Shown here: positions 10,664 to 52,804 of the stretch, one piece after another
Layout: every line of letters begins with the position of its first letter
Numbering within the stretch: position 1 is the first letter of the stretch
NCBI GenBank assembly: GCA_963711255.1
Contig: CAVQDO010000023.1
Coordinates: 139,933-203,932, forward strand
DNA: 64,000 nt
Origin: an uncultured Gammaproteobacteria bacterium
GTDB taxonomy: Bacteria; Pseudomonadota; Gammaproteobacteria; SZUA-229
Direction: 5' to 3'
Translations under genes and position numbers: made by a program
Notes under the pieces: generated by a model
Told to the model about the DNA's origin: nothing
The model's database searches: none
The model's input: only the letters and a program-made list of their open reading frames with translations

Positions 10664-12496
10664 TTAAAGTGATGACCAGAGTTCATCAAAGTCATCTTTA
10701 TTTTTTGTCGCTTCTTCCTTTTTCGCCTGTTTTCTTATACGCTGATCTTCTTCAGTGTTTTTATAGGTGAATTGAGTGAATGAGCCCGTGTGTTCTCTAG
10801 TAGGGCCTAGAGTAACATTTAATTTGTTTTCCAGTATTTGAACGGTAAGTTTATCATTTGTTTTAAAAGCATGCGAAGGCAAGATAGTGCTCGAAGCCTG
10901 TTTCAGTGCCTTGATTCCGGGCAGCATCAGGCAATCGAACGGAATTTCGTCAGGGCGGTTGACTCGCTGGGCGGTGGCAGTAACAACTTTGGGTGATATT
11001 ACCTGTACGCCTATTTCGAGTCCGTTTTCCCGGGTAAACTGCATCCAGCGAATTACGCCTATACGCCATTCAAAATTATTCTTGGCATCAAATTCCTGCA
11101 ACGCAATAAGCTCACCAATCTGTGCTTTAGATGTTTCATCTGAATTCCATTGCAGGCGATAACCGCCGGCACTGATATTGACGATATCCCAGTGCGAATC
11201 GGTATTCTGCGGAGAGGTGAGCTGTTCTTCTTTTATAAACTGTTTTTCTTTTGTATAGGTTTCGGTTAAAACACGGCCCTGCGCAACCATGTCCCAGGAA
11301 TCATTTTCTTTGTCACCGATTTCTGTGTGTGTCATGTATCCCATGTTACGTTTGTCGCTTTCTGCGGTAATTGCTTCCAGGGTAAAATCCGGATCCTGTT
11401 TTGTAGATGTCGAGGTGCGAACAAATCCGGATTTGGTGTCGATATTCTCATCGTTTTTGTATGAATTCCGGATAGCTTTTGCAGATTGTTTTAAACCGAT
11501 GGCTACATTAATTTGGCCGTTTCGGTTTGCGCGAGAAAAGCGCCGTTTTGCATTTTCTGCCCATGAATTAACCAGTACATTCAGTGTTTCCAGCGGAATA
11601 GTGTCACCAACCGCAATTTTCTGTTTTTGTTGTGCCTGTTCGGCAATCAGTTGTTTCACATGTTCAACCAGTTTATTCGCGCTTAATATGCGAATAGTGG
11701 TTTTGCCGTCGAGATCGTTTTCGCATAAATAATCGGGTGCGGCATCTTCACTAACACGCATACAGAAAACCCGGTCAATTAATTTTTCTGATGCTTCGCG
11801 ATGCAGGCTTGCGTATTGCGACCAAGTATAAAGTTCTTTAAAAACGCGTTCACTGTCACTTTGTCTTAAAGCAATCGGGCGTGCCAGTGCGAACAGGATT
11901 ATCTGTTTATAACTGTTCTCGATGGTGTTTTTCTGCAGTGGGCATTCATCATCAATAATAGTGTTTCCGGTCAGCTTCTGGCTTTCCGCAAAAATATACA
12001 GTTGATGGAGGTCGTGCCAGAGTTTTTTCGGGCTGGGTGCGTAAACTTCAGATGAGCGAAGAAACATTTCAGATAAATATGATATGGCGCGGATTATCGC
12101 CATGCTTAGCGTTTTATCATCAATTTTTTTGTCTACCTGGTTAGCGGCTTCGTAGACGATGATTTCATAGCCGTATATCAGTTCCTGTAAAATGGACTGG
12201 TTTAAATTGACAATTTTCTGGCTTTTATCGGGCAGTGGTAATGTACGATTGATGAAATATTTTTTCAGATTATTAAATATGTTACGGGTCTGTTTGCGCA
12301 GCATTTCCAGGTTTTCCAGTCGATGTTTGTTAGGCATGGACTGACGATTCTGGTCGCGCAGTATCTGAAAAGTTTGCTTGGTTAACTCGCCCATATTTGC
12401 ATTGGGCAGTGCAGTCATCAACTTTTTGAACTTCCGAGGATTACTCGGTGTAGACTTTTCGGTCGGCGCAATTTGTTCTGGTATATTTAATTTCAT
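10664..12496 (-). CDS. Large PilZ-motif protein, FimW-like by position (putative c-di-GMP effector)
   Basis: 610 aa. It carries an RxxxR element (RRFSRANR) and a (D/N)xSxxG element (DIVNISAGGYRLQW) in the C-terminal half, although they are unusually far apart. It sits immediately downstream of the FimX-like gene on the same strand. Confidence 0.5.
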   Translation of the reverse strand: MKLNIPEQIAPTEKSTPSNPRKFKKLMTALPNANMGELTKQTFQILRDQNRQSMPNKHRLENLEMLRKQTRNIFNNLKKYFINRTLPLPDKSQKIVNLNQSILQELIYGYEIIVYEAANQVDKKIDDKTLSMAIIRAISYLSEMFLRSSEVYAPSPKKLWHDLHQLYIFAESQKLTGNTIIDDECPLQKNTIENSYKQIILFALARPIALRQSDSERVFKELYTWSQYASLHREASEKLIDRVFCMRVSEDAAPDYLCENDLDGKTTIRILSANKLVEHVKQLIAEQAQQKQKIAVGDTIPLETLNVLVNSWAENAKRRFSRANRNGQINVAIGLKQSAKAIRNSYKNDENIDTKSGFVRTSTSTKQDPDFTLEAITAESDKRNMGYMTHTEIGDKENDSWDMVAQGRVLTETYTKEKQFIKEEQLTSPQNTDSHWDIVNISAGGYRLQWNSDETSKAQIGELIALQEFDAKNNFEWRIGVIRWMQFTRENGLEIGVQVISPKVVTATAQRVNRPDEIPFDCLMLPGIKALKQASSTILPSHAFKTNDKLTVQILENKLNVTLGPTREHTGSFTQFTYKNTEEDQRIRKQAKKEEATKNKDDFDELWSSL

Positions 12497-15606: not shown

Positions 15607-16776
15607 ATGAACATGAAGGTAGCTTTGAGCATGTCAAGAATAAGTCCAGTTAAATTCTATTTTTATCTTTCACTAACGCTCATTTCCGGTTGGTCAGCAC
15701 AGTTGCAGGCAGATAATGTAATTACGGTTGGTGTTGCTCCGCATGGTGGTTACGTCATTCTTGGTGGCAGTGTTATTCCGCTTAAAGAGGTTACTCTTTC
15801 AGCACAAATGCCGGGACGCATTGTAAGTATTGCCGGTGAAGAAGGTGATGTTTTTACTGCGGGTACTGAACTGGTAAAGATAAATGATGATGATCTGCAG
15901 GCAAAGAAAGTTGCTGCCGAAGCGCAGATAAGTTCAGCCCAGAATTCTATGCAGAATGCGCAGGTTCAATACAATCGTGAATTGTGGAACCCGCGCGTTT
16001 ATAACCCGCGTCCTATGGCGGGCATGGGCATGCCTTCAATGTTTGATGGTTTTTTTGATAATGGAGTCATGCCGGGTAGTAACAGCGGCAATAAAAGCAT
16101 TGAAAGACATGCTGATCTGGTTACACAGGGAACACAGGTTTCATCATCACGTTCACAGTTGACAGAGGCAGAATCTGCTTTACGTGCTATCAATGCAAAA
16201 TTGCGAGATACCAAATCGATAGCTCCTTTTGACGGCATTATCATGCAAAAAATGATCGAGATTGGTGATACCGTTCAGCCTGGGCAGCCGCTCATCGTTT
16301 TTTCATATTCAAAATTCTTGCGTATACAGGCGGAAGTGCCGGCCAGGTTGATGCCCGGTCTGCAGAAAGGCATGGTTGTTCCGGCCAGGCTTGATGTCGG
16401 TAATACACAGATTAATGCACGTGTTGCTCAAATCTCTCCGATAGCCGATAACAAACAGCATACCGTGACGGTAAAATTTGATTTGCCTGAAGGTGTTCCT
16501 GGTGGCGCAGGGATGTATGCCGAAGTTATGATACCTGATATCAATTCACCCACTCGTGCACTGCCTGTAATACCAAAATCTGCTATCAGTAAACGAGGCA
16601 GTTTGCCTTCGGTCCAGGTACTTGATGAAAACAATGTGCCCAAGATGCGTTTGATTCGCACGGGTATCGAAATAGGTAACGATACTGTCATCGTGCTTTC
16701 CGGTATCAAACCCGGGGAAAGAATTCTGACCAATAGCGAAGAACCTAAGCCACCAATGCCATGGGGTGGCCAGTAG
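15607..16776 (+). CDS. RND efflux periplasmic adaptor (membrane fusion protein, HlyD family)
   Basis: 389 aa with an N-terminal hydrophobic anchor or signal, lipoyl-hairpin-like halves (GRIVSIAGEEGDVFTAGTELVKIND and APFDGIIMQKMIEIGDTVQPGQPLIVF), and a coiled-coil middle. Confidence 0.85.
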   Translation: MNMKVALSMSRISPVKFYFYLSLTLISGWSAQLQADNVITVGVAPHGGYVILGGSVIPLKEVTLSAQMPGRIVSIAGEEGDVFTAGTELVKINDDDLQAKKVAAEAQISSAQNSMQNAQVQYNRELWNPRVYNPRPMAGMGMPSMFDGFFDNGVMPGSNSGNKSIERHADLVTQGTQVSSSRSQLTEAESALRAINAKLRDTKSIAPFDGIIMQKMIEIGDTVQPGQPLIVFSYSKFLRIQAEVPARLMPGLQKGMVVPARLDVGNTQINARVAQISPIADNKQHTVTVKFDLPEGVPGGAGMYAEVMIPDINSPTRALPVIPKSAISKRGSLPSVQVLDENNVPKMRLIRTGIEIGNDTVIVLSGIKPGERILTNSEEPKPPMPWGGQ

Positions 16777-16933: not shown

Positions 16934-19900
16934 ATGACTGACCAATTGGATAAAGATCAAGATAAAGATAAAGATGAAGACCTGAAATGTGATGTTCCAC
17001 CATCGGCATCGATTGGCGGTAAAGATCTCGGTCTTGCCGGTAATATAGCAAAAACTTTTATTAATTCACCTGTGACTCCGATGTTGTTAATAGCAACACT
17101 GCTTATCGGAATTAGTGGTTTGATCTTCACGCCAAGACAGGAAGATCCGCAGATTTCTGTCCCTATGATAGATATCTTTGTTTCCTATCCAGGTACTTCT
17201 GCTTCGCAGGTAGAAAGTCTGGTAACCGACCCGCTAGAAAGGCTGATGGATGAAATTCCAGGCGTGCGTCATACTTTTTCTGCTACACAGCGCGGTAATG
17301 CTATCGTTACTGTGCAGTTTTACGTGGGTGAAGATCTCGGTGAATCCATTGTTAAAGTAAACGATAAAATTCGTTCGAACATGGACATGATGCCGCCCGA
17401 TGTTTTACGACCCCTGGTTAAACCGGTTGCGATTGATGATGTGCCAACTGTGGCGGTTACGCTATGGTCGAAAGAAGTTGATGATAGTACCCTGCGTATT
17501 CTTGGTAATGATGTGCTGCAGGAGCTTGGGCAGGTTGTAAATACCGGTAAAGGTTTTGTCGTTGCAGGGCGTGCTGATCAGATTCGGGTAGAGGTATTGC
17601 CTGAGCGACTGGCAGGCTACGGTATTAGTTTGCAGCAGGTGGCGGGTGCTATAACTGCGGCCAATTCGCAGCAAAATGTTGGCGCGGTTGAGGCTGGCAG
17701 TACTTCATTTACCGTGTACTCAGGTTCATTCTTGCGTACAGCTGCAGATATTGAGCGTCTGGTTGTAGGCATGAACCATGGGGCGCCCGTTTATATGCAG
17801 GATGTGGCTGAAGTGTTTCATGGCCCTGAAGACGCTAATAATATTTCTTCCTATTATGCAGGGCCGGCTTACGAAGGTATTGAGCGACCTACCGGAGATC
17901 CTGCGGTAACCATTGCGATAGCCAAAAAAGAAGGAGCAAATGGTGTAACCGTTTCAAAATCAATTTTGAAAAAACTGGAAGAATTAAAAGGCACTATCAT
18001 TCCAGATAACGTACATGTGGAGATCACGCGAGACTACGGCAAATCGGCCAATGATAAAGTTAACGAGTTGCTGAGTGCAATGTTCGAAGCGACCGCAGCT
18101 GTCGCGATATTATGTTTGATTGGTTTGGGTTTTCGAGCGGCTTTTGTAGTGGTAACCGTTATTCCTGTGGTTATCCTGATTACTATCTGGTGGGCGTGGA
18201 TGGTGGATTACACTATTGACCGCGTCAGTATGTTCGCATTGATTTTCTCTATTGGTATTCTGGTAGACGATGCCACCGTGGTGGTGGAAAATATCTTCAG
18301 GCATTGGCTCATTAAAGGGCGAACCACTCTCGCTGATGCGGTTGATGCAGTTCGTGAAGTGGGTAATCCAACTATTTTGGCGACCTTTACCATTATCGCC
18401 GCACTGTTGCCTATGGGCTGGGTGAGCGGCATGATGGGCCCCTATATGCGCCCGATTCCAGTGATGGGCGCGTCAGCCATGTTTTTCTCATTGATTGCAG
18501 CATTTATTTTTACGCCGTGGTTTGCGGTGCGCGTTCGTCCGCAGTTGGAGGCTTTGAAAAAAGCCGAGAAACGAGAAGAGAAAACTCGCAAATTTGTTGC
18601 CGCTCTTTATCGCCCTCTCATTATGCCGCTGGTAAACAGCCGCAGGCTTGGTATCTTTTTCCTGATTGGTATTATCTGTGTTACCGCGATGACAATGTTG
18701 TTATTTTACCCAACGCAGTGGGTCGCGGTGAAAATGTTGCCGTTTGATAACAAACCAGAATTCAGTGTCGTTATTAATATGCCGGAAGGAACAGCAATGC
18801 CGGTTACGGCTAACCTGGCCCATGAGCTGGCAACTGCAATTAACCAGATGCCGGAAGTAGAAGCGGTGCAGAGTTATGCGGGTACAGCACAGCCATTCAA
18901 CTTTAATGGCATGGTCAGGCACTATTATCTGCGAAAACAACCCTGGCATGGCGATTTACTGGTGATGTTGAAAGAGAAACATGAACGAGAGAAAAGCAGT
19001 CACCAGATAGCAGAAGAAGCGCGCGCTTTATTAACGCCCATAGCGCAACGCGCAGGTGGTCGTATAGCGATTGTTGAAATGCCTCCGGGTCCACCTGTAT
19101 TGCAAACCGTGGTGGCTGAAATTCATGGCCCAGACGCAAAGACGCGACGCGAAGTTGCCAGCAAAATGACAGAGTTTTTTGAAAAAGCCGGTGGTGTTGT
19201 GGATGTAGATAATTACATGAATGAGCCTTCCCAGCATTGGCGTTTCGAAGTGAATAAAGAAAAGGCGATCCGCCGTGGTGTTACTGTTGACAGCATCAAT
19301 GGAACATTGGCGATGGCAATGGGTGGTTTCAAACTGGGTGATGTGAAACGCGCCTCAGTAATAGAGCCTACTTATATTGTGATTCAGGTACCAATGGCAA
19401 CGCGTTCACAGGTTAATCAGCTAAGTAACTTGCCCATGGTGACTTCCGATGGGACTATTGCCCCTCTGGGTGAACTGGGTCGTTTTATGCTTGAGTCGAA
19501 TGAACCCATTATCTGGCACAAAGATTTGCGCGATGTTGAATTTGTTGTCGGTGAGATGGAGGGTCGTCTGGGTGCGCCGATTTACGGTATGTTCAATGTA
19601 GAAGAATTTACCGATCAGTACACCACGCCTGATGGTGTCATCATGGAAGGCATGCCAATGAACCTGATTGGTCCACCTGACAGTGACACAAATTCAGGCT
19701 TCGAGTGGACTGGCGAATGGACTGTAACTTATGAAACATTCCGTGACATGGGGATTGCATTCATGGCAGCCCTGATATTGATTTATGGTTTGATTGTCTG
19801 GGAGTTCCGTGATTTTGCACTGGCGGGCCTGATCATGTCGCCCATTCCGCTAACCATGATTGGTATCGTACCTGGACACTGGTTTCATGGCGCTGAATTT

Positions 19901-20545
19901 ACCGCTACATCGATGATCGGTATGATCGCGTTGGGTGGAATTATCGTGCGGCAATCGATTCTAATTGTCGAGTTTGTGAAGATTGAAGTAGCGAAAGGTG
20001 TTCCAGTTAAAGAAGCCGCTGTTAACGGTGCGGAAATACGTATGCGGCCGATTTTCATTACTTCACTGACCTTGATGGCAGGTGCTTTTGCTATCCTTGA
20101 CGATCCTATCTTTAACGGCATGGCGATAAGCCTGTTATGGGGCGCGGGTGTTGGCACCCTGATGGCCGTTATTGTCATCCCGATGGGTTGTATCAGCAGC
20201 CGTGAAAACTTCTATTATGAAACATCGGATTCAGGTGAACGGGTGATTAGTAGTAAATTTGAAGAAATTGAAGGGGTAAAACCTTATCTGAATAACCTGC
20301 CCGAAGCCGAGGCTGAATATAAAGTACCGCTTTGGATGCGTATTTACAGTATTATAGTCAGTATTGTCGGCTGGCTATTTGTTATTGGCCAGATGATATT
20401 TAATCTCCTGCGAATGCTGTTTGGTATGGTAGTCGGTATGTTTGGTTCTGATTCAGAACCGCCTTCACCGCCCGCATCAACACCGCCAGCATCAACGCCA
20501 CCGACTCCGGCCACCTCCAGCTCCGCCGGCATCGCCAGCTTCTGA
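16934..20545 (+). CDS. RND-superfamily efflux permease with an extra C-terminal hydrophobic helix and a Pro/Ser/Thr tail
   Basis: 1203 aa with AcrB/CzcA-type architecture: two large periplasmic loops, FSIGILVDDATVVVENIFRH and GGIIVRQSILIVEFV. After the last canonical TM comes an extra hydrophobic stretch (LWMRIYSIIVSIVGWLFVIGQMIFNLLRMLFGMVVGMF), then SEPPSPPASTPPASTPPTPATSSS. Confidence 0.88.
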   Translation: MTDQLDKDQDKDKDEDLKCDVPPSASIGGKDLGLAGNIAKTFINSPVTPMLLIATLLIGISGLIFTPRQEDPQISVPMIDIFVSYPGTSASQVESLVTDPLERLMDEIPGVRHTFSATQRGNAIVTVQFYVGEDLGESIVKVNDKIRSNMDMMPPDVLRPLVKPVAIDDVPTVAVTLWSKEVDDSTLRILGNDVLQELGQVVNTGKGFVVAGRADQIRVEVLPERLAGYGISLQQVAGAITAANSQQNVGAVEAGSTSFTVYSGSFLRTAADIERLVVGMNHGAPVYMQDVAEVFHGPEDANNISSYYAGPAYEGIERPTGDPAVTIAIAKKEGANGVTVSKSILKKLEELKGTIIPDNVHVEITRDYGKSANDKVNELLSAMFEATAAVAILCLIGLGFRAAFVVVTVIPVVILITIWWAWMVDYTIDRVSMFALIFSIGILVDDATVVVENIFRHWLIKGRTTLADAVDAVREVGNPTILATFTIIAALLPMGWVSGMMGPYMRPIPVMGASAMFFSLIAAFIFTPWFAVRVRPQLEALKKAEKREEKTRKFVAALYRPLIMPLVNSRRLGIFFLIGIICVTAMTMLLFYPTQWVAVKMLPFDNKPEFSVVINMPEGTAMPVTANLAHELATAINQMPEVEAVQSYAGTAQPFNFNGMVRHYYLRKQPWHGDLLVMLKEKHEREKSSHQIAEEARALLTPIAQRAGGRIAIVEMPPGPPVLQTVVAEIHGPDAKTRREVASKMTEFFEKAGGVVDVDNYMNEPSQHWRFEVNKEKAIRRGVTVDSINGTLAMAMGGFKLGDVKRASVIEPTYIVIQVPMATRSQVNQLSNLPMVTSDGTIAPLGELGRFMLESNEPIIWHKDLRDVEFVVGEMEGRLGAPIYGMFNVEEFTDQYTTPDGVIMEGMPMNLIGPPDSDTNSGFEWTGEWTVTYETFRDMGIAFMAALILIYGLIVWEFRDFALAGLIMSPIPLTMIGIVPGHWFHGAEFTATSMIGMIALGGIIVRQSILIVEFVKIEVAKGVPVKEAAVNGAEIRMRPIFITSLTLMAGAFAILDDPIFNGMAISLLWGAGVGTLMAVIVIPMGCISSRENFYYETSDSGERVISSKFEEIEGVKPYLNNLPEAEAEYKVPLWMRIYSIIVSIVGWLFVIGQMIFNLLRMLFGMVVGMFGSDSEPPSPPASTPPASTPPTPATSSSAGIASF

Positions 20546-21008
20546 GGTTGAGGATAAGCCGGAGAAAAAAATCACTAAAAAGTCTACAGTGACTAAAAAG
20601 AGTGCGGCTAAAAAAACAGTAGCAAAGAAAATAGCGAATAAACCAGTTGCGCCTGTAAAAAAAGCGCCTAAGAACGAGGTCCTTAAAAAAGCGGTTTCTG
20701 ATATTGAAGCGCCTGTAACGGCGGCACCTGAAAAAGCTGCTTCAGAAAAAGTCGTTCCAGAACAAGTAGTTCCAGAACAAGCTGCTCCGGAAAAAGTCGT
20801 TCCGGAAAAAGCTGCACCTGAGCAGAAAATGGTTGCCCAAAAGCCGGTTACTGTAAAGAAAGTGGCTAAGAAAAAGTCTACCACTAAAGTGGCGACTCAG
20901 GCAGCAGCTAAGCCGACGACGGTTAAAAAGATTGCTGTTAAGAAAGCACCATCGAAAAAATCACCACCAGCTGGTCGTCGCGGTATTCGATTGAAGGACG
21001 ATGGTTAA
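20442..21008 (+). CDS. Lys/Ala/Pro-rich low-complexity ORF (histone H1/TolA/TonB-spacer-like composition); start unresolved, possibly a frame-shifted continuation of the RND gene
   Basis: The frame is open from a TTG at 20442 inside the RND gene. There is no ATG or GTG near the RND stop, and the first in-frame ATG is at ~20829. The sequence reads KKSTVTKKSAAKKTVAKKIANKPVAPVKKAPK, then PEKAASEKVVPEQVVPEQAAPEKVVPEKAAPEQK. The next gene follows after 20 nt. Confidence 0.45.
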   Translation: MVLIQNRLHRPHQHRQHQRHRLRPPPAPPASPASEVEDKPEKKITKKSTVTKKSAAKKTVAKKIANKPVAPVKKAPKNEVLKKAVSDIEAPVTAAPEKAASEKVVPEQVVPEQAAPEKVVPEKAAPEQKMVAQKPVTVKKVAKKKSTTKVATQAAAKPTTVKKIAVKKAPSKKSPPAGRRGIRLKDDG

Positions 21009-21028: not shown

Positions 21029-21628
21029 ATGTTTTGTAACACTGGTATTGATTACGTCATAAAAGTGGCTGTAGCCGTTCTGTTGTCTCAATCATTGCTT
21101 GTATATGCAAAAGATCAGGCTATAAATGCCTCTGAACCAGTAGTGAACGCAGCACCTGAATCTAGCATTAAAGCCCGACAGCAAGTACGTGGCTTACCTC
21201 GGTGGCCTGAGCATCGGCGGTCACGCATGATGGCAGAGATGCCGCCACCACCACCATCAGGTCCTTATATGTCCTCAGCATTAAGTGGTTCTTCTATTGA
21301 AGGACTGTCATTTGATGATGATAAATCTGCAATGAAATTTGAACCTCCCGCTCAGCGGATGGAAGCATTTGGTCCAGATACTCCCTGGCCAGGTAACTCA
21401 AATTCACTTAATCGATGGGTGCCTGAAAAAGGCTATAACTATGTGCAGCCGGTTGTAAAAAAACAACCATACCCGGGTGTGCGATATGATTTTCCGGTAA
21501 ATTATACTGACGGGTATAACCGAGGTCCGGGTATGAACATGCCTGGTATGAGAGGATCTTATGTGCAAAGGCCTAACACTGCTCCACCGGGGTATAGTCG
21601 GGGATATAATGCCCCCGCACAGAGGTGA
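21029..21628 (+). CDS. Secreted Pro/Gly/Tyr/Asn/Met-rich hypothetical protein
   Basis: 199 aa with a signal-like N-terminus (VIKVAVAVLLSQSLLVYA) and an RBS agaggtg. Low-complexity C-terminal half (GYNRGPGMNMPGMRGSYVQRPNTAPPGYSRGYNAPAQR). Confidence 0.6.
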   Translation: MFCNTGIDYVIKVAVAVLLSQSLLVYAKDQAINASEPVVNAAPESSIKARQQVRGLPRWPEHRRSRMMAEMPPPPPSGPYMSSALSGSSIEGLSFDDDKSAMKFEPPAQRMEAFGPDTPWPGNSNSLNRWVPEKGYNYVQPVVKKQPYPGVRYDFPVNYTDGYNRGPGMNMPGMRGSYVQRPNTAPPGYSRGYNAPAQR

Positions 21629-21791: not shown

Positions 21792-22565
21792 ATGCTGTTT
21801 CGGGTAATAAACAATATATTAACTTCAAGCCTGGTATATGGCTTTCTGATGCTTATGACTACAACTGCGCTGGCAGACAGTGAAGACTTTCAATTTTCCA
21901 GGCAGTTGGTAGCGGAGCAATCAAACCCATGGGCATTGCCTCAGGTTAAGGAAAAGAAACCTGGGTATAGGGGGGGGTATAACCAAAATAACCAGGCAGA
22001 TTCCAACCATGGTCAATATAGCGACACCCCATACCAGGGACGCCAGTATCAAAACCGTAACGGTGCAGGCCAAAGCCAGCGGAATAATTATTGGCAGCCC
22101 CGGGTGGATCGCTTTGTTACCCCGGAATTTCTAGAATCTTTGAAGCAGCAGCAAAAAATGCAACAGATTATGCCGGAAAATCGACAGAATCGTGAATATG
22201 AATATGGTCCACAAGGATCAATGCAGCGATCGCCAGAAGCAAGATTGCCAGGACTGAATGGCTCTGGTTATTCCATGTACGGCCCGTCATATGGAAAAGG
22301 TTCTGTCAATCCGCTGTACGATACCCCTGCTGCATCACCCTGGGGTGGTGGTGCCGATGTCTTGTACCAGGGAGAGTCGTTTCCGCTGGTTCCCAGTGAA
22401 GCGATAGGCGGGTTTGCACCAATGCATGTGCCTTCATTTGGTATCCAGCGCTACCCGGATAATTATTTTAATGAAACAAACGAAACAGATGTAGAACGAA
22501 TCAAAAAACCTAAAGAGAACAATGTCTTCAATCCATTTACGTTTTTGCCGGATGCTGGTTTGTAA
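21792..22565 (+). CDS. Secreted Gln/Asn/Gly/Tyr/Pro-rich hypothetical protein
   Basis: 257 aa with a signal-like N-terminus (LVYGFLMLMTTTALA/DS). Biased composition (PGYRGGYNQNNQADSNHGQYSDTPYQGRQYQNRNGAGQSQRNNYW). Confidence 0.6.
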   Translation: MLFRVINNILTSSLVYGFLMLMTTTALADSEDFQFSRQLVAEQSNPWALPQVKEKKPGYRGGYNQNNQADSNHGQYSDTPYQGRQYQNRNGAGQSQRNNYWQPRVDRFVTPEFLESLKQQQKMQQIMPENRQNREYEYGPQGSMQRSPEARLPGLNGSGYSMYGPSYGKGSVNPLYDTPAASPWGGGADVLYQGESFPLVPSEAIGGFAPMHVPSFGIQRYPDNYFNETNETDVERIKKPKENNVFNPFTFLPDAGL

Positions 22566-22713
22566 TTGCATTAAGCCATAGCGTCTATAGGTCAAAAAGC
22601 GTATAGTATGTAGTTGATAGATGTTATTTTAGATGACTAGATAGTTATCTGGTATTGAGTTACTCCCTCGATTCAGTACCAAAATTAACGAGGGTAGTAA
22701 TAGAGGTATTAAT

Positions 22714-23145
22714 ATGAAATCAGTGATAAAAATGGCTGTTTTAACTGCAGCATTAGGCTTTGCCTTAGCGCCTTTATCTGCAGCTGCAGACTTTGATATG
22801 CCATGGGACAATAACAATAACAGCAGCAATAACTGGAACAACAATAACCGATGGAACAATGATGGTTATGGATCAGGTTATGGTGATGGTTATGGTGATG
22901 GTTCTGGTGATATGGATGGCAGCTTTAACTTTGGTATGAGTGGTAAAGGAAGCGGCCGTGGTCGTGGTGATGCTCGTAACCAGTACTACGGTAACGGTAG
23001 TAACAACTGGGATAATCGTTGGGATAATAATAGCGGTTATTATAATAACCGCGGCTATGGACGTCCATATTATGGTCCAGGCCCAGGTTACGGCCCAGGT
23101 CCATATGCACAGCCACCTGCGCCACAGGCTGCACCTGCACAATAA
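22714..23145 (+). CDS. Small secreted Gly/Asn/Tyr/Trp-rich protein (structural or sulfur-globule-protein-like composition)
   Basis: 143 aa with a Sec signal MKSVIKMAVLTAALGFALAPLSAAA. By hand count the 118-aa mature part has 25 Gly, 22 Asn, 12 Tyr and 5 Trp. A strong terminator directly follows the stop. Confidence 0.7.
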   Translation: MKSVIKMAVLTAALGFALAPLSAAADFDMPWDNNNNSSNNWNNNNRWNNDGYGSGYGDGYGDGSGDMDGSFNFGMSGKGSGRGRGDARNQYYGNGSNNWDNRWDNNSGYYNNRGYGRPYYGPGPGYGPGPYAQPPAPQAAPAQ

Positions 23146-23163
23146 GCGGCGTTTAGTATAATG

Positions 23164-23192
23164 ACGGTGTCGCTCTGACACCGTTTTTTTTT
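23164..23192 (+). terminator. Rho-independent terminator after the Gly/Asn/Tyr-rich gene
   Basis: acggtgtc (23164-23171) and gacaccgt (23177-23184) form a perfect 8-bp stem with a 5-nt loop. A run of 9 T follows (23184-23192). Confidence 0.8.
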
Positions 23193-23203
23193 AATTGGTC
23201 GTC

Positions 23204-24004
23204 ATGAAAAAAATATACATCCTTATTGCATTAATTTATTCAGTTTATGCCGTGCCTTTGTGTGCAGCATCTTTTACAGCTGATGCTGTGCAAATACGTG
23301 GTGAAAGCGTCAGCCAGGCAAAAATGTACTGGCGTGATGGGAATGTGCGTTTTGAATACATCGAGGATGATGTAAAAATGGCGCAAATTTTTGATAACAG
23401 TAATAATAAAATTATCTGGTTAGATAATGAGAATAAATTGTATCTGGAAAAGGAAATGCCAGAGAGTGAAAAAGTCATTGCAGGTAGTAAATCGAAAAAA
23501 GGATCTACAAAACAAACAGATCCCTGCGGGCAGTTTGCTGGTGCCGAATGTGTTTTTCTAAAGAAAACAGAGATTAATGGCCGCGCTGCGGAAAAATGGT
23601 TGATTACACTAAATAGTAATGGACGAGATTTTCACGTTTTTCAGTGGATTGATTCTAAATATAAAAATATACTCAGACAGGAAAATTCTGATGGCTCCGG
23701 ACTGGAGGTAACACTGCTGGATAAGCAGGAGATAAATAACCGCAAGGTCAGAAAGCTGGCTATAGTTGCCTTTAGTGCCAGCGGCGAGCAGCAGAAGGGA
23801 ACGCAGTGGTATGATAATGAGCTGGATATTGTTGTCAGGCAGGAGTATCAGGATGACGTTATAGATGAGCTGCGCAATATTAAAGTTGGTAAAGTGAGCA
23901 AAAAGCTATTTACTGTACCTGAGGATTACGCATTATTTGATAGTACGATATATACCGAGCCAGTGGATGATGCGGCCGAGCTGGCAAGTAAGGATGCAGA
24001 ATAG
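23204..24004 (+). CDS. Exported hypothetical protein
   Basis: ORF with a signal-like N-terminus MKKIYILIALIYSVYAVPLCAASFTADA. I prefer the ATG at 23204 because the track start (TTG 23195) abuts the terminator T-run. I recognised no family motif. Confidence 0.65.
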   Translation: MKKIYILIALIYSVYAVPLCAASFTADAVQIRGESVSQAKMYWRDGNVRFEYIEDDVKMAQIFDNSNNKIIWLDNENKLYLEKEMPESEKVIAGSKSKKGSTKQTDPCGQFAGAECVFLKKTEINGRAAEKWLITLNSNGRDFHVFQWIDSKYKNILRQENSDGSGLEVTLLDKQEINNRKVRKLAIVAFSASGEQQKGTQWYDNELDIVVRQEYQDDVIDELRNIKVGKVSKKLFTVPEDYALFDSTIYTEPVDDAAELASKDAE

Positions 24005-24095: not shown

Positions 24096-24722
24096 ATGTT
24101 GACAGTCGTAGGGAATTTGAAAGGGGGTACTGGCAAAAGTACCGTGGCATTTAATCTTGCTGTATGGCTGGCGCATGATAAGACTGGCGTTAGAGCGTTT
24201 GACCTTGACCCGCAATGTACATTAGTTGATGTTTGTGAGGTTCGTGAAGAAGATGGTTACGAGCCGATGTTTGATGTTTCAACAGATGTAAACGAACTTG
24301 AAGAGCTCGCGTCTGATAAAAAGAACAGGCAGCCGATTATTGTTGATATGAGCGCCAGTAATATGCCGGCCATGGAAAAGGCAATATCACTAGCGAACCG
24401 GATTTTAATTCCGGTGCAGCCCAGTCAGGCGGATATCTGGTCGACGCAACGATTTTTAAAAATCATTGCCAACAGCTTAAATGGCAATACGCCTGAAGTT
24501 CTGGGTTTTATTAATCGAGCAGATACCCATATCGGTGTTCGTGAGACGGATGAGGCGGAGCAGGCGCTACAGATGTTGCAGGGAATTAAAGCAATGGATA
24601 TTCGTCTATATCAACGTACTGCTTACCGCCGTTCGTTTAGTGAAGGATTGGGTGTGTTTGAGCTGGACCCCATGGGGAAAGCTTCAAAAGAAATGAAAAT
24701 GCTGGCTACAATGCTGGATTAA
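24096..24722 (+). CDS. ParA/MinD-family (deviant Walker A) ATPase, short orphan type
   Basis: 208 aa with VVGNLKGGTGKSTVAFNLA (KGGxxGK[ST]). No parB or plasmid/partition context. Confidence 0.85.
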   Translation: MLTVVGNLKGGTGKSTVAFNLAVWLAHDKTGVRAFDLDPQCTLVDVCEVREEDGYEPMFDVSTDVNELEELASDKKNRQPIIVDMSASNMPAMEKAISLANRILIPVQPSQADIWSTQRFLKIIANSLNGNTPEVLGFINRADTHIGVRETDEAEQALQMLQGIKAMDIRLYQRTAYRRSFSEGLGVFELDPMGKASKEMKMLATMLD

Positions 24723-24806: not shown

Positions 24807-26120
24807 ATGAAAATTATTCGTTGGTTGCTAAGTCATACTATTCTTATCCTGTTAATAATCGCGGTTATTTATGGCTATATGTTCTGGGGAAACCTTGCTG
24901 GTGAAGACACGCCAGCAGGTAAAGCGCTTGCCTACCTTTCGAATGAATTTGTAGAAGTTGAAGAGTTTATAGCATCAGTCAAAGAGAAGCAGGCCGAGCG
25001 TAATCAGGACGATTCTATGGCTAGCGCGTCCGAAGCTGAGCAGCAAGCCGATATTGGCAGCGATACCGGGGGAGATGCCGGCGAAGATGTTGCCAGCGTT
25101 GTAGCTGCTGAAGAAGACCAGGCTGCAACGACAGGGATTGCTAATACAACGCTTGCCAGCACAGCGGCTGATTCGACAAATGGCAGCGAGCTGCAACAAC
25201 AGCCGGTCAATATTAGTTATAGCCATAATGACAGGCCGGTAACACAGAATTCGTCGGCTATTAGCGAAGCCGGGTCAATGCAGCAGGGTAAAGCCTCAGC
25301 TGCAGCAGCGACAGCCTTAACATCTGCCACATCAGAAAGTAGTATGAAAAGCAATGCTGGACAGAGCAAGGCTGTGCAGAGCAATGCTGAGATGAGTAAT
25401 GCCGAGCAGGGTAAAGCCTCAGCTGCAGTAGCGACAGCCTTAACATCTGCCACATCAGAAACTAGTATGAAAAGCAATGCTGGACAGAGCAAGGCTGTGC
25501 AGAGCAACGCTGAGATGAGTAATGCCGAGCAGGGTAAAGCCTCAGCTGCAGCAGCGACAGCCTTAACATCTGCCGCATCAGAAACTAGTATGAAGAACAA
25601 TGCTGGGCAGAGCAATGCTGAGATGAGTAATGCCGAGCAGGGAAATGCCGCGTCTGGGCGAGCTCCAGGTCCAGAAAAAACACAATCTGCACAGCTGCCG
25701 CCAAAGAAAGCCAGGCAGGCATCAGGAACCTTTGTTTCAGCGGAATTAGAGAAACAGCTTAATAAAGTTGATGAGAATGGTGTTCCCGTAAAGGCGTCGC
25801 TAGCTGAAAGTGAAGTCAGAGAAAGCTGGATTTTGGCGCGCAAATCGTTTTATCTGCGTAACTATAAGCTCTCAGAAAAAAGTTATCGCAATGTTATTGA
25901 AAATACCGACGATAATTATGATGCATACGGTGAGTTAGGAAATGTTTATTTTAACCAGGGAAAGAGGCGGGAAGCAGCAGCTGCTTACTATGAAGCCGCA
26001 GCTATCTTAGTGAGAAAAGGGCAGGTAAATCGCGCAAAAAGTTTGCTTGGTTTGTTGCGTAACCTGGATAAAACAAAAGCAGACGAATTGAAAAAATTAA
26101 TTGATTCGTCTTTATCTTAA
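24807..26120 (+). CDS. Bitopic membrane protein: N-terminal TM, acidic/Ser-Ala-Thr-Asn tandem repeats, C-terminal TPR-like domain
   Basis: 437 aa. TM segment WLLSHTILILLIIAVIYGYMFWG. About three copies of a 41-aa repeat (QGKASAAAATALTSATSESSMKSNAGQSKAVQSNAEMSNAE). TPR-like C-terminus (YGELGNVYFNQGKRREAAAAYYEAAAILVRKGQVNRA). Confidence 0.75.
   Translation: MKIIRWLLSHTILILLIIAVIYGYMFWGNLAGEDTPAGKALAYLSNEFVEVEEFIASVKEKQAERNQDDSMASASEAEQQADIGSDTGGDAGEDVASVVAAEEDQAATTGIANTTLASTAADSTNGSELQQQPVNISYSHNDRPVTQNSSAISEAGSMQQGKASAAAATALTSATSESSMKSNAGQSKAVQSNAEMSNAEQGKASAAVATALTSATSETSMKSNAGQSKAVQSNAEMSNAEQGKASAAAATALTSAASETSMKNNAGQSNAEMSNAEQGNAASGRAPGPEKTQSAQLPPKKARQASGTFVSAELEKQLNKVDENGVPVKASLAESEVRESWILARKSFYLRNYKLSEKSYRNVIENTDDNYDAYGELGNVYFNQGKRREAAAAYYEAAAILVRKGQVNRAKSLLGLLRNLDKTKADELKKLIDSSLS
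25284..25637 (+). repeat. In-frame tandem repeat, 123-bp unit, 2.9 copies
   Basis: Units start at 25284, 25407 and 25530. Units 1 and 2 differ at 3 of 123 nt by eye. Unit 3 carries a 15-nt deletion plus a few substitutions. Confidence 0.9.
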
Positions 26121-26150: not shown

Positions 26151-26741
26151 ATGTTTTATGCATTACGAAATTTATTCGCATTAGTTGGTTTTATTTCGAT
26201 TGTTGTTGCAATTTATGCAGCTGTAAAAATAGCACCAATGATGCAGGCTTTTGACGCGTTTGATGAGAAAGCCATCGATGTATACAGTGAGATGGTGACT
26301 AAAATCCTTGAAACGGGAAATACCGCTGAAGCAACAGTCTGGAAAGTTCAGGTTAACGAAGACCTGACCGCGAAAGATGTTGAAGAGACCATGAAGTTTG
26401 TCGCTAATGAGCACAACATCAAAAACGTGGGCGAGCTTCCGCTGTCTGGAGAGGTCGAAGCTATGTCGGGAGAGAAATCCCGTTTCTTTAAAATTTACAT
26501 GTTCTGTAATGCGTTAACAGCAGCACAGATGCTTGAGTACAGTGATGCTTATTCTGCTTATTTACCCTGCCGCGTCAGCATGGTTGAAGATAAAGAAGGC
26601 AAACTTTGGCTATACTCATTAAATATGGATGCCATGATTTATGGTGGTACACCTTTACCTGCAGATTTAAAAACAGAAGCTGAAGGTGTGAAGGAGATTA
26701 TCCTGGATATTATGAACAGGGGCGCTGAAGGCGATTTCTAA
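26151..26741 (+). CDS. Membrane-anchored DUF302-like protein
   Basis: 196 aa with an N-terminal TM (LFALVGFISIVVAIYAAVKI). The C-terminal part resembles DUF302 (FKIYMFCNALTAAQMLEYSDAYSAYLPCRVSMVEDKEGKLWLYSLN). Confidence 0.65.
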   Translation: MFYALRNLFALVGFISIVVAIYAAVKIAPMMQAFDAFDEKAIDVYSEMVTKILETGNTAEATVWKVQVNEDLTAKDVEETMKFVANEHNIKNVGELPLSGEVEAMSGEKSRFFKIYMFCNALTAAQMLEYSDAYSAYLPCRVSMVEDKEGKLWLYSLNMDAMIYGGTPLPADLKTEAEGVKEIILDIMNRGAEGDF

Positions 26742-26742
26742 G

Positions 26743-27951
26743 ATGACAACGAATAAAACGGTAGATGATAAATCTACTGACAAGCCGGATACCACTAAAG
26801 CTTCCACGGCTAAAAGTGACACAGCTGCTAAAAGTAAAAGCACTGCTAATAAAGCCAGTGAAACGACGGTTAAGAAAGAGTCGGCGACTGTCGCAGCTAA
26901 AAAAGATTCAGCTGCAGTAGCCGATAAGTCCGCAGCTAAAAAAGATTCAACTGCACAGAAAACTTCTGTGGCTAATGAAGATGTGATAAGCAAGACTACT
27001 GCCGCAACACAGAAGGCGGCTGCTTCAAAAGAATCTGATATGAAAGCGGCGGTGAAGAAGATTAGCGAACTGGATAAAATTGCCGCCGATAATGCGATTA
27101 AGTCAAAAAAAGGCGCCGAAGATTTAAAAGCACGTGCACATGAAGCCAGGTTACGCGCCCAGGAAAAGATACTTGAAAAGTCATACGTCAGTGATCCGCC
27201 AGAAGACCCGTTGGAACGTCTGGCTAATACCTTTGACAACAGTGCCAGGCGCTGGGAAATGGTGGTTTACCCGTCATTATTTGCCTTTGTACTGTTAGCA
27301 GGTTATGGCTTCTTCCTGATCTATCGACTAACGCATGATATTGCCGTATTGTCGCAATCCGTAACACATATGGCGGTTATTGTTTCTGATGCCATGCCGC
27401 GTATGACCAAGGATTTAAATTTGATGACCGGCAGTATTGATAATATGACGGGTAATATTGATGGTATGTCGACAGAAATCAGTTCGATGTCTGGCCAGAT
27501 GAACAGTCTGACGCCAATGAGTAAAAATATAAGTAGTATGACGCATAACATTGGCAGCATGAATCGTTCAGTATATGGCATGCAGCGTGATATCGGTGGC
27601 ATGAACCGTACCGTATCCAGTGGCCCGTTGGGTATGATGAACGATGTTATGCCGTTTAGTTCTTCATCGAATGTACCGCAACCTCTGGCACCATCGCCTG
27701 TGTGGCCGGCTTATAATCCAGCACCCTATAATTACGGGGCACCGAATATGCAAAACCAAAGGCAAAACCAGAGACCTGCGGCTAGAAGCACACCCAAGCC
27801 TGCTGCCAAGCCACAGCCTGTAGCAAAGCCAAAGGCTGTGGAAGAGGCAGAAGTAGCGTTAAAAAAAAAGCCGCTAAGTTCGTTGCCGCCACTCAATAGT
27901 AAACAGCTGTCTACCCCGCTAAAGAAATTTAGCAGTGAAGATTTGAAGTAA
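26743..27951 (+). CDS. Bitopic membrane protein with a Lys/Ala/Ser/Thr-rich N-half, Met-phased heptad repeats and a Pro-rich C-terminus
   Basis: 402 aa; the start is 1 nt after the upstream stop. TM segment WEMVVYPSLFAFVLLAGYGFFLIY. Ten heptads M-x3-(I/V/M/L)-x2: MTKDLNL MTGSIDN MTGNIDG MSTEISS MSGQMNS (LTP) MSKNISS MTHNIGS MNRSVYG MQRDIGG MNRTVSS. Confidence 0.7.
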   Translation: MTTNKTVDDKSTDKPDTTKASTAKSDTAAKSKSTANKASETTVKKESATVAAKKDSAAVADKSAAKKDSTAQKTSVANEDVISKTTAATQKAAASKESDMKAAVKKISELDKIAADNAIKSKKGAEDLKARAHEARLRAQEKILEKSYVSDPPEDPLERLANTFDNSARRWEMVVYPSLFAFVLLAGYGFFLIYRLTHDIAVLSQSVTHMAVIVSDAMPRMTKDLNLMTGSIDNMTGNIDGMSTEISSMSGQMNSLTPMSKNISSMTHNIGSMNRSVYGMQRDIGGMNRTVSSGPLGMMNDVMPFSSSSNVPQPLAPSPVWPAYNPAPYNYGAPNMQNQRQNQRPAARSTPKPAAKPQPVAKPKAVEEAEVALKKKPLSSLPPLNSKQLSTPLKKFSSEDLK

Positions 27952-28039: not shown

Positions 28040-29581
28040 ATGTTAAATCGCCCAGATAAGTCCATTCGAGAACGATTGACGAAACTGGAGACGCATTTAA
28101 ATAATGAAAATCCATTGTTACTTGACGTAGTTTCGCGATTCAAAAAGCTTGATACAGTGGCCTATAAAATGGGCCTTCTGGATACGCGGGAATCCTATGC
28201 CACTAGTATTCCGTGGTGGCCGCTGGTTTCCATTCTTGGGACATTCTCTGCCGGTAAATCTTCATTTATCAATAATTTCCTCGGTGATAAATTACAGCTG
28301 ACCGGCAACCAGGCAGTCGATGATAAATTCACGGTAGTAACATACAGCAACAGCAAAGAACATCGTGTATTACCTGGCGTGGCGTTAAATTCTGATCCGC
28401 GTTTTCCTTTTTACCAGATGAGTGATGAGATCGATAAGGTTTCTATTGGTGAGGGCAGGCGTATTGATGCTTATCTGCAAATGAAAACATCGCATTCAGA
28501 TAAATTAAGCGGCAAGATTATTATCGATTCTCCCGGCTTTGATGCAGACGAACAACGTAATGCGATATTGCGTTTAACCGACCATATCGTTGATCTGTCA
28601 GATTTAGTGCTGGTGTTTTTTGATGCGCGCCACCCGGAACCGGGCGCCATGCATGATACCCTGGATCACCTTGTTGGTAATACGATTATTCGCAGTGATT
28701 CTGAAAAGTTTTTATATATACTCAACCAGATCGACACTGCGGCGCAGGAAGACAACCCTGAAGCGGTGGTCGCATCATGGCAACGTGCACTGGCGGCTAA
28801 AGGATTAACGGCCGGGCGTTTTTATACTATTTATAATCAGGATGTGGCTGTACCAATCGAAGATGTGGCGGTGCGTCAGCGTTTTGAGAAAAAATGTGAA
28901 CAGGATAAATCGGCCATATTTGAGCGTATACACCAGGTTGAAGTTGAACGCTCTTATCGTATTGTGGGTGCACTTGAGACAATAGCCACAGATATTGAGA
29001 GCCAGGTGGTTCCCATGGTTAAAGAAGCCATGACGCAATGGTTGAAACTGGTATTGAAACTTGATGCGGCAGCAATTGTCCTCTTTGTTATTTTATTATT
29101 TGCCCTGTCCCAGGTTTTTGATGCCTGGGCGCTGTTCTCTTATGATTTTTCTGCTGATAGTATTGTTTCTTCTATCAAGTTAGGCTTAACCTTAATTGGG
29201 TTTATTATCGTGCATTTTTATGCGCGCAGTTTTGCGGCGAAACGCATTGCTAAGAAGCTGGTGAGTAAAATTGTTATTGATAAAAGTCTGGCGGGTAAGC
29301 ATCGCGAAGGTAATACTCTGGCAGGAAATATTAAACAGGCTTTCCTGAAAAACACACAGCCACTACGCAGTATTTTCAGGCCAATGCCGGTTGGCTGGTC
29401 TATGCGTTCAAAACGTGTTCTGGCAGAAGTCATTGCAGATTCCAGTGAACTGATACAGACAATGAATGATCGTTATACACGGCCTTCCGGTGAAGCAGCG
29501 CCGCAACCGGCCGCTGCAGAAAGTGATACTGCAGAGGTCGAAACCTTGAAGGCAGTCAAGTCTTCAAGTGAGATAGAATAA
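28040..29581 (+). CDS. Dynamin-family (bacterial dynamin-like) GTPase with a C-terminal membrane hairpin
   Basis: 513 aa. G1 is GTFSAGKSSFIN, G3 is IIDSPGFD, and G4-like is ILNQIDT. Two C-terminal hydrophobic segments (AAAIVLFVILLFALSQVF and LGLTLIGFIIVHFYA). Confidence 0.75.
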   Translation: MLNRPDKSIRERLTKLETHLNNENPLLLDVVSRFKKLDTVAYKMGLLDTRESYATSIPWWPLVSILGTFSAGKSSFINNFLGDKLQLTGNQAVDDKFTVVTYSNSKEHRVLPGVALNSDPRFPFYQMSDEIDKVSIGEGRRIDAYLQMKTSHSDKLSGKIIIDSPGFDADEQRNAILRLTDHIVDLSDLVLVFFDARHPEPGAMHDTLDHLVGNTIIRSDSEKFLYILNQIDTAAQEDNPEAVVASWQRALAAKGLTAGRFYTIYNQDVAVPIEDVAVRQRFEKKCEQDKSAIFERIHQVEVERSYRIVGALETIATDIESQVVPMVKEAMTQWLKLVLKLDAAAIVLFVILLFALSQVFDAWALFSYDFSADSIVSSIKLGLTLIGFIIVHFYARSFAAKRIAKKLVSKIVIDKSLAGKHREGNTLAGNIKQAFLKNTQPLRSIFRPMPVGWSMRSKRVLAEVIADSSELIQTMNDRYTRPSGEAAPQPAAAESDTAEVETLKAVKSSSEIE

Positions 29582-52144: not shown

Positions 52145-52804
52145 TTACTCGGCTACGGTCAGACCCATAAACTGAGCGAGCAGGCCAAGGCCAAACAATA
52201 ACCAGATAATAGCGCCTGATATGATCAGGATATAATTCCACAGGCTGTATTTATAGTTTAAATACCCCAATATATCATTGTTAATTCGATTGACCGTTGC
52301 CTGCACTTTTAGCAATGGGTATGTGCTAAGAAAAAATAAAGCCAGCGATAGAATCATAATCGTACTGTTGTTAAAATTCATAACGCTGCTGGAAACACCC
52401 ATTATTCGATCCAGGATATAACTCAATACTATTGTGGCGACAAAAAAAGTAGCCAGGGCATTTGCATTGAACTGGTGTTTTTTATCAAGCTGAGACGCCT
52501 GCTGGTCAATTCTTTTAAAAAGTGAATGGGTGAAGAATATGGAAAAAATTGCCCTCGGCAGGGGATAAATCTTTTTATCCATTAAAGGCTGCTGCCGCTT
52601 CCAGTTCTGGTAAAACCAGTACACACCATAAAAACCAAAACTTAAAATATAAAGTGTAATAAGTTTACCCTCAGAAACCGGGAAAAAAGCCGTGCTGTCA
52701 TGCGAGCCGGGTTTTTGATTTTCAGGTGACTGAGCGCTAACGTGTTCGGCGTTTTCCGTATGGGGTTTGGTCTTTATTTCCTGATCGGTTTCAAACTGGC
52801 TCAT
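52145..52804 (-). CDS. Hypothetical multi-pass membrane protein (DUF4234-like N-terminal helix pair)
   Basis: 219 aa with LITLYILSFGFYGVYWFYQNWKRQ and several further hydrophobic segments. Convergent with purF. Confidence 0.55.
   Translation of the reverse strand: MSQFETDQEIKTKPHTENAEHVSAQSPENQKPGSHDSTAFFPVSEGKLITLYILSFGFYGVYWFYQNWKRQQPLMDKKIYPLPRAIFSIFFTHSLFKRIDQQASQLDKKHQFNANALATFFVATIVLSYILDRIMGVSSSVMNFNNSTIMILSLALFFLSTYPLLKVQATVNRINNDILGYLNYKYSLWNYILIISGAIIWLLFGLGLLAQFMGLTVAE

Follow-up and report, generated by a model that had tools for sequence, protein, structure and literature searches.

An asparagine-rich member of the sulfur globule protein family, probably a globule envelope protein, in an uncultured sediment gammaproteobacterium

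The sgp gene, its product and its expression signals

The DNA analysed here, referred to as the window, is a 64-kb stretch of contig CAVQDO010000023.1 (positions 139,933 to 203,932) from an uncultured sediment gammaproteobacterium, and its subject is the gene sgp, whose small secreted product had been likened to sulfur globule envelope proteins on the basis of sequence alone (the original prediction). The window is ordinary gammaproteobacterial chromosome, containing parE/parC, efp/epmA/epmB, leuCDB, asd, fimV, truA, trpFBA and accD, together with folC, dedD, cvpA, purF and proS. Direct reading of the window confirmed a 143-amino-acid open reading frame (ORF) at 22714..23145 on the plus strand. 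The features assigned to the gene are as follows.

22599..22615, plus strand: conserved upstream block GCGTATAGTATGTAGTT, near-invariant in an alignment with loci L001, L002, L020 and L023; putative promoter core
22660..22700, plus strand: hairpin in the 5'-untranslated region (5'-UTR), TTACTCCCTCG (22660-22670) with CGAGGG-T-AGTAA (22689-22700), immediately 5' of the Shine-Dalgarno sequence
22703..22706, plus strand: Shine-Dalgarno sequence GAGG, 7 nt before the ATG, read from the sequence
22714..22788, plus strand: Sec-type signal peptide of 25 amino acids, MKSVIKMAVLTAALGFALAPLSAAA, with a basic start, hydrophobic core and AxA cleavage motif and without a lipobox Cys, read from the sequence
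22789..23145, plus strand: mature chain of the SGP family, 118 amino acids and stop, assigned from Pfam PF17228, homologue scores and the ratio of nonsynonymous to synonymous changes (pN/pS)
23163..23192, plus strand: intrinsic terminator with a 9-pair stem (8 Watson-Crick pairs and one G-U; 23163-23185), a 5-nt loop and T9 (23184-23192)

A recount of the 118-residue mature chain gave 25 Gly, 22 Asn and 12 Tyr (59 residues in sum), 5 Trp and no Cys, identical to the counts in the original prediction, and its remark that aliphatic residues were nearly absent was borne out in that Ile, Leu and Val are all missing, with 3 Met and 6 Ala present. With 3 Phe the aromatics total 20, and there are 7 Arg. 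Gly makes up 21% of the chain, Asn 19%, Tyr 10%, and Phe, Trp and Tyr together 17%; the mature protein has a mass of 12.9 kDa, an isoelectric point of 4.5 and a grand average of hydropathy of -1.64. The motifs singled out in the original prediction, NNNNSSNNWNNNNRWNN, GYGSGYGDGYGDGSGD and YYGPGPGYGPGPY, were all found in the product. In its N-terminal half the mature chain runs from an Asn/Trp-rich region into a GYGxGYGDGYGDGSGD-MDGSFNFGMSG core, followed in the C-terminal half by a GRGRG stretch, NNWDNRWDNN and a Tyr/Gly/Pro tail that ends in PAPQAAPAQ. Its repeats are GYGD and NNWDNR, the former encoded by a 12-nt tandem repeat of 4.3 copies at 22860-22911. The signal peptide was judged by its layout in the sequence and by alignment of homologues; that layout is standard, and the signal peptide and cleavage-site region have aligned equivalents across the family, so that the Sec signal first proposed stands. 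AlphaFold modelling with a 40-sequence alignment gave a mean predicted local distance difference test score of 46.5 and no secondary structure, and the product is therefore predicted to be disordered. A PDB sequence search with the family profile returned no meaningful match, and none was returned for the neighbouring DUF4412-like protein either.

Comparison with five orthologues gave pN/pS values of 0.05-0.34. A total of 52 differences separate sgp from its counterpart in L037, and 45 of these fall at third codon positions. The gene is under purifying selection. Its orthologues vary mainly through insertions and deletions inside the repeats.

The 148 nt upstream of sgp were aligned between the window and the four orthologous loci L001, L002, L020 and L023, and contain two conserved islands, the GCGTATAGTATGTAGTT block and the 11-pair hairpin. 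The block includes a -10-like hexamer, TATAGT (22602-22607), with an unconvincing -35, and may form the promoter core; a scan with the sigma-70 consensus found no promoter upstream of sgp, and a sigma-54-type site sought there by eye was rejected. Every one of the five sequences forms the hairpin, which shows three changes on one side only and no compensatory pair of changes, and it is present in the minimum free energy fold of the window sequence with a z-score of only -1.4. RNAalifold favoured another, overlapping 5'-UTR hairpin, with compensatory support for neither, and Rfam at gathering thresholds detected no family anywhere in the window, this hairpin included. The hairpin is conserved, yet covariation gives no proof of it, and we regard it as a candidate mRNA-stabilising or translation-control element. 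Within it an anti-Shine-Dalgarno-like stretch, CUCCCUCG, pairs with CGAGGG just 5' of the real Shine-Dalgarno sequence of sgp (22660-22700). The GAGG 7 nt before the ATG corresponds to the ribosome-binding site that had been claimed; orthologues show a purine-rich, Shine-Dalgarno-like stretch at the same position, but without an aligned conserved column.

The terminator, originally described as an 8-bp stem with T9, has these 8 Watson-Crick pairs and T9 with one G-U pair in addition (dG -15.6 kcal/mol, z -2.6). Its position is kept in L001, L002, L020, L023 and L037, and the stem in the window shows a compensatory change from GGTGCC/GGCACC to GGTGTC/GACACC. Codon usage in sgp favours GGT, CCA, CGT and AAC more than in the neighbouring genes, with the Tyr codons departing from this trend. 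Because the terminator and the 5'-UTR hairpin are conserved and the bias towards optimal codons is present, if mild, the gene fits the description of a monocistronic and well expressed unit, as the original prediction had suggested.

Membership of the sulfur globule protein family

SgpA (CV1, Alvin_1905) and SgpB (CV2, Alvin_0358) of Allochromatium vinosum are the founding sulfur globule envelope proteins. A search with hidden Markov models had been suggested as a check on homology to such proteins; when run with Pfam, the sgp product matched PF17228 (SGP, sulphur globule protein) with 34.2 bits (E 4.7e-8, profile positions 2-87 of 93), against a curated gathering score of 26.7 bits, and without its signal peptide it scored 34.3 bits. 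SGP was the only Pfam family matched, and NCBIfam, which has no model for the family, gave no match to the product. Since low-complexity proteins can match such models by composition alone, shuffle and reversal controls were run, and at E<=10 neither the reversed sequence nor any of nine shuffles of matched composition gave a match to PF17228. Against eight database homologues the real product scored 25-64 bits, while 100 shuffles reached at most 5.4. Residue order, beyond composition, thus matters for the homology. The likeness to sulfur globule proteins, first noticed in composition, is upheld by a family model that a Beggiatoa Sgp also matches.

An exhaustive profile search of 1.84 billion proteins yielded 370 family representatives (50%-identity clusters), and on these numbers the SGP family is small and well delimited. 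The exact sgp product was not found in a collection of 15 billion proteins. An ordered motif architecture is common to 40 aligned members: a signal peptide is followed by an aromatic Asp/Asn-rich N-terminal region (with the motif D(F/W)DMP(W/F) in the branch of the window), then by NRWNNDGYG, the core GDGSGD-x-DG-F-F-M, GRGRG, GYNNWDNR and a Tyr/Gly/Pro tail with the end AP-x-AAP. Relatives in the databases bear names like 'Sulfur globule protein CV1' or else 'sulfur globule family protein', which are automated transfers and no evidence. The window protein combines a score above the PF17228 threshold with the Sec signal layout and a small, repetitive mature chain that is rich in Gly and aromatics and lies in the size range of the SgpA/SgpB type, about 8-15 kDa, and it is a new Asn-rich member of a known family, from an uncultured sediment gammaproteobacterium.

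A genome scan for sgp loci, seeded with 4 close sequences, gave 42 loci, all from Gammaproteobacteria or unclassified Proteobacteria metagenome-assembled genomes (MAGs); none of the genome representatives scanned was identical to the window. The nearest loci are L037 and L001, whose products share 94% (in the part that aligns) and 88% of their amino acids with that of the window. The named hosts are the gill symbionts of Solemya velum and S. elarraichensis and symbionts of lucinids (Lucinoma, Bathyaustriella), all of them thiotrophic, and the remaining loci come from sediment, mud and vent MAGs. At the inspected loci of distant family members no sulfur-oxidation genes were found within 10 kb, a result that is uninformative in either direction. 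Relatives often carry several sgp copies per genome, with at least 3 in MFD03551.bin.1.144 (L001, L027, L036) and at least 4 in the S. velum symbiont, a multiplicity like that of SgpA and SgpB; six-frame translation of the window gave one match to the SGP profile in the 64 kb examined.

The closest named relatives of the window protein are the Sgp proteins of the Solemya velum symbiont and of lucinid symbionts of the Candidatus Thiodiazotropha type, with 41-50% identity. These share with it D(W/F)DMP(F/W), NRWNNDGYG, GRGRG, GYNNWDNR and the APxAAP end, whereas the window protein and its counterparts in L037 and L001 are set apart by longer runs of Asn and GPGPGY repeats. With SgpA and SgpB, to which it was likened by description and through PF17228, the window protein has in common its small size (about 10-13 kDa), Sec signal, richness in Gly and aromatics, repetitive sequence and lack of Cys. 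Its host differs from A. vinosum in being a non-phototrophic uncultured sediment gammaproteobacterium outside the Chromatiaceae. SgpD of A. vinosum (Alvin_2515), set beside the window protein by description, is likewise a secreted globule protein, but it is a larger, different protein nearly confined to Chromatiaceae. A further parallel with SgpD is that some SGP members have coiled-coil-like extensions at the C-terminus; a coiled-coil part is missing from the window protein.

Sgp proteins from other organisms have been tied to sulfur storage. In Beggiatoa leptomitoformis, transposon disruption of the gene for ALG67575.1, a protein identified by mass spectrometry and induced about tenfold by thiosulfate, led to the loss of sulfur globules and of lithotrophic growth (PMC7356093). 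In lucinid symbionts Sgp proteins rank with the most abundant of all proteins (PMC11171427), and both in the symbiont of Riftia (PMC7787665) and in SUP05 (PMC6509183) Sgp tracks the storage of sulfur. Beggiatoa Sgp sequences, which came from a paper supplement, were used for comparison in place of the A. vinosum proteins. Against PF17228, ALG67575.1 scored 27.7 bits, the B. alba protein 22.7 and the Thioflexithrix protein 21.4. A family profile built without these three sequences (A7) gave 16.2 bits for B. alba, 6.1 for Thioflexithrix and 0.7 for ALG67575.1, compared with about -31 +/- 5 for shuffles that retained the signal peptide; ALG67575.1 thus lies approximately 6 standard deviations above its own shuffles (-32.6 +/- 5.2). 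ALG67575.1 of strain D-402 follows the layout of the window protein, with a signal peptide, a Trp/Gly N-terminal region, a DGSGWGDFNMSMGGGGRG core and a Tyr/Gly/Pro/Ala tail, which ends in PAPAAPEAK; it differs from the window protein in that its tail is long and rich in Ala, Pro and Tyr and that Asn runs and NNWDNR are missing.

Sgp proteins have been described as keratin-like or plant-cell-wall-like, with Gly, aromatics and repeats (PMC10386293). The Gly/Tyr-rich keratin-associated proteins and plant glycine-rich cell-wall proteins, which are also repetitive, self-assembling and structural, offer an analogy only: they are non-homologous, eukaryotic, in many cases Cys-rich, and belong to another cellular setting. 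The reversed window protein gave a faint KRTAP match (E 1.2).

In several metagenomic SGP members the chain is joined to the peptidoglycan-binding domain of the OmpA C-terminus (OmpA_C), and these fusions place the family, on independent grounds, in the periplasm. Variants with extra C-terminal domains include P0047, P0053, P0069 and P0076, as well as those at L004, L017, L039, L040, L042, L021, L030, L032, L034, L035, L038 and L041, the additions being peptidoglycan-binding domains of OmpA, repeats of the AAQMKAAEVR type or coiled-coil-like tails rich in Gln. Such additions suggest that some SGP variants anchor the coat of the globule to structures such as the cell wall. In L047 (10001-10489) the Sgp product shifts past GYGGGWGG into an unrelated hydrophobic, Pro-rich C-terminus, probably an assembly frameshift within the repetitive tail. 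Paralogues of sgp adjoin a triple-receiver adenylate/guanylate cyclase in seven loci (L013, L017, L022, L029, L032, L033, L036) and a PAS-GGDEF-EAL protein in five (L004, L016, L017, L040, L042); another recurring setting is MlaA-sgp-X-aceE. The repeated proximity of sgp paralogues to signalling proteins hints that sulfur storage is under second-messenger control.

The conserved neighbourhood of sgp

In the window, sgp lies among genes for a resistance-nodulation-division (RND) pump, secreted proteins, a ParA-like ATPase and a dynamin-like protein, which are listed here with the basis of each assignment.

15607-16776, plus strand: RND membrane-fusion protein (MFP); Pfam, NCBIfam
16934-20545, plus strand: RND permease; Pfam, NCBIfam
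20442-21008, plus strand: C-terminal tail of the RND permease, Lys/Ala-rich and histone-H1-like, in a shifted frame; in frame in orthologues
21029-21628, plus strand: secreted low-complexity protein of 199 amino acids, Pro-rich, with a PPPPPSGPY motif; no Pfam or NCBIfam match
21792-22565, plus strand: secreted low-complexity protein of 257 amino acids, rich in Gly, Gln, Pro, Asn and Tyr; no Pfam or NCBIfam match
23204-24004, plus strand: secreted DUF4412-like protein; Pfam/NCBIfam
24096-24722, plus strand: orphan ParA-like ATPase with the deviant Walker A motif KGGTGKS; below the NCBIfam ParA_partition cut-off
24807-26120, plus strand: protein with an N-terminal transmembrane helix, a repeat region and C-terminal tetratricopeptide repeats (TPR); Pfam/NCBIfam
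26151-26741, plus strand: DUF302 protein; Pfam/NCBIfam
26743-27951, plus strand: 402-amino-acid protein without assigned function; order conserved
28040-29581, plus strand: membrane-anchored dynamin-like protein; Pfam/NCBIfam

The order of this module is maintained in the close relatives L001, L002, L020, L023 and L037. A reduced module is found in L010, L011, L018 and L034, of the lucinid-symbiont type, where MFP, RND permease, ParA-like ATPase and dynamin-like protein have about 47-66% identity to those of the window and sgp is likewise flanked by the RND pump and the ParA-like gene. Compared with this type, the module of the window, L037 and L001 has in addition the two low-complexity ORFs and the DUF4412 and DUF302 genes. 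A reduced module is also present in L043/L044, and a full one in L047, a genome of 55.8% GC with a diverged Sgp of a Gly/Trp-rich type, whose RND permease is 67%, ParA-like ATPase 48% and DUF4412 protein 30% identical to their counterparts in the window. Across the three diverged lineages the ParA-like ATPase retains 48-58% identity to that of the window, and in four lineages the ParA-like ATPase and the dynamin-like protein always accompany the RND-sgp pair. What these four lineages conserve is the module as one unit, since the genes outside it differ between them. The cluster seems to be undescribed.

The two low-complexity proteins between the RND genes and sgp have counterparts with 32-46% identity in L001, L002, L020 and L023, and in L047 analogous ORFs stand at the same place, one with a PPPPGPY motif, and with a GGYGGYGGY run. 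That the two might be SGP paralogues was ruled out, as neither matches the SGP profile. The products of 21029-21628 and 21792-22565 may be additional components of the globule envelope.

The RND permease of the window switches frame at about 20500-20520. Its orthologues in L001 (1353 amino acids) and L043 (1289 amino acids) continue through a Pro-rich linker into a Lys/Ala-rich tail with the end GRRGI(R/Q)LK, and the window copy is frameshifted, whether by sequencing error or as a split gene or pseudogene. It is in any case unusual for an RND pump to carry a tail of DNA-binding-like character. In the TPR gene a 123-nt tandem repeat of 2.8 copies (95% matches) at 25282-25620 encodes 41-residue repeats rich in Ser, Ala and Asn, and the central region of this protein is weakly conserved among orthologues. 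Elsewhere in the window, ORFs on the minus strand at 10664-12496 (610 amino acids) and 52145-52804 (219 amino acids) have no Pfam family at E<=1e-5.

Proposed function and alternative explanations

It is likely, in our judgement, that the sgp product is a sulfur globule envelope protein of the SgpA/SgpB type, in an Asn-rich form. Several points weigh against this. The margin over the PF17228 threshold is modest for the Asn-rich branch, the proteins of L001, which is a close orthologue, and of L010 both falling slightly under the cut-off, at 26.0 and 25.8 bits. A phmmer comparison of the window protein with the Beggiatoa Sgp proteins gave negative scores that were non-significant after composition correction, so that the link between them holds at the level of profiles and Pfam only. 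No named A. vinosum protein was among the matches listed in the homology searches and cluster look-ups. The window protein is very hydrophilic and Asn/Asp-rich, whereas the A. vinosum Sgp proteins are described as extremely hydrophobic. Scans of the 64-kb window with Pfam and NCBIfam did not find sox, dsr, sqr or fcc, and the mechanism of assembly set out below is one that we infer only.

If the sgp product does coat sulfur globules, the gene would be transcribed as a monocistronic, probably abundant and stable mRNA, given its 5' hairpin and strong terminator, and Sec would export the precursor, with cleavage following AAA. Once in the periplasm, the mature chain could self-associate through aromatic and Arg 'stickers' (12 Tyr, 5 Trp, 3 Phe and 7 Arg) separated by spacers of Gly, Asn, Ser, Asp and Pro. 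The aromatics would adsorb the chain to the hydrophobic surface of zero-valent sulfur formed by periplasmic oxidation of sulfide or thiosulfate, and the parts rich in Asn and Asp would point towards the water and keep the globule wettable, with the two neighbouring secreted low-complexity proteins possibly joining the envelope. The outcome would be a thin coat of protein, within which the stored sulfur stays in separate globules that can be used again. We infer that the window organism oxidises sulfur and stores globules, and sgp would serve as a marker that flags this uncultured sediment gammaproteobacterium as a probable sulfur-storing thiotroph. With this protein the family, whose founders have been called extremely hydrophobic, also gains a branch that is rich in Asn and very hydrophilic, and such a branch bears on how disordered chains rich in Tyr, Trp and Arg wet and stabilise elemental sulfur.

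To our knowledge, the only components of sulfur globules that are known are structural envelope proteins, and nothing is known of nucleation, sizing or positioning. The conserved neighbourhood is for this purpose a more valuable lead than sgp alone. It is conceivable, if rather unlikely, that sgp is the structural core of a dedicated module for globule biogenesis and positioning, in which the cytoplasmic ParA-like and dynamin-like parts would space the periplasmic globules or remodel the membrane around them, and the RND pump would bring in or clear away some hydrophobic component. Coupled to sgp in one module, the envelope-spanning pump, the ParA-like ATPase and the dynamin-like protein are concrete candidates for the nucleation, sizing and positioning of globules.

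The alternative that survives best, though we consider it improbable, is that this SGP-family member acts as a general matrix protein of the periplasm or cell envelope, associated with peptidoglycan or with the RND pump, instead of coating globules. The OmpA_C fusions of some family members would suit such a role, as would the placement of sgp in a conserved RND-pump module that has no sulfur enzymes, the failure to find sulfur-metabolism genes within the 64-kb window and the unusual hydrophilicity of the protein. However, all named hosts of the family are thiotrophs that store sulfur, and genetic or proteomic work on members from Beggiatoa and from symbionts has shown their function. Adjacency to a pump is also no argument against a globule role, since sgpD of A. 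vinosum adjoins a hydrophobic/amphiphilic (RND-type) exporter, in parallel with the RND-sgp arrangement in the window.

We think it very unlikely that the product is a subunit of a functional amyloid or biofilm matrix, exported to the surface in the manner of curli, with its Asn/Gly/Tyr repeats forming cross-beta fibres. Its Asn-rich, aromatic, low-complexity composition does resemble amyloid-prone or prion-like sequences, and the monomer is predicted to be disordered, but it matches no Curlin-repeat or amyloid family, SGP being its sole Pfam match, and it lacks regular imperfect repeats of curli length. Secretion genes like csgB/E/F/G or fap were not found among the scanned ORFs of the window. 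Still less credible is a Gly-rich, microcin-like antimicrobial peptide exported through the adjacent MFP and RND permease. This would account for a small, Gly-rich, secreted product encoded downstream of an MFP-RND pair; the signal, however, is of the Sec type with an AxA site instead of a double-glycine leader, no ABC/C39 exporter or immunity gene was found in scans of the window, the gene is a chromosomal orthologue across genera that is kept by purifying selection and has several paralogues per genome, and the product matches the SGP family. A spurious ORF arising from repetitive DNA can be practically dismissed, for while the codon repeats, including the 12-nt tandem repeat, do yield overlapping ORFs in several frames, the codon-level conservation described above (low pN/pS, mostly third-position differences) refutes it, the ribosome-binding site, signal peptide and terminator are conserved, and homologues number in the hundreds. 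The ORFs that overlap sgp on the minus strand and in other frames gave zero matches, and those on the minus strand are by-products of its repetitive codons.

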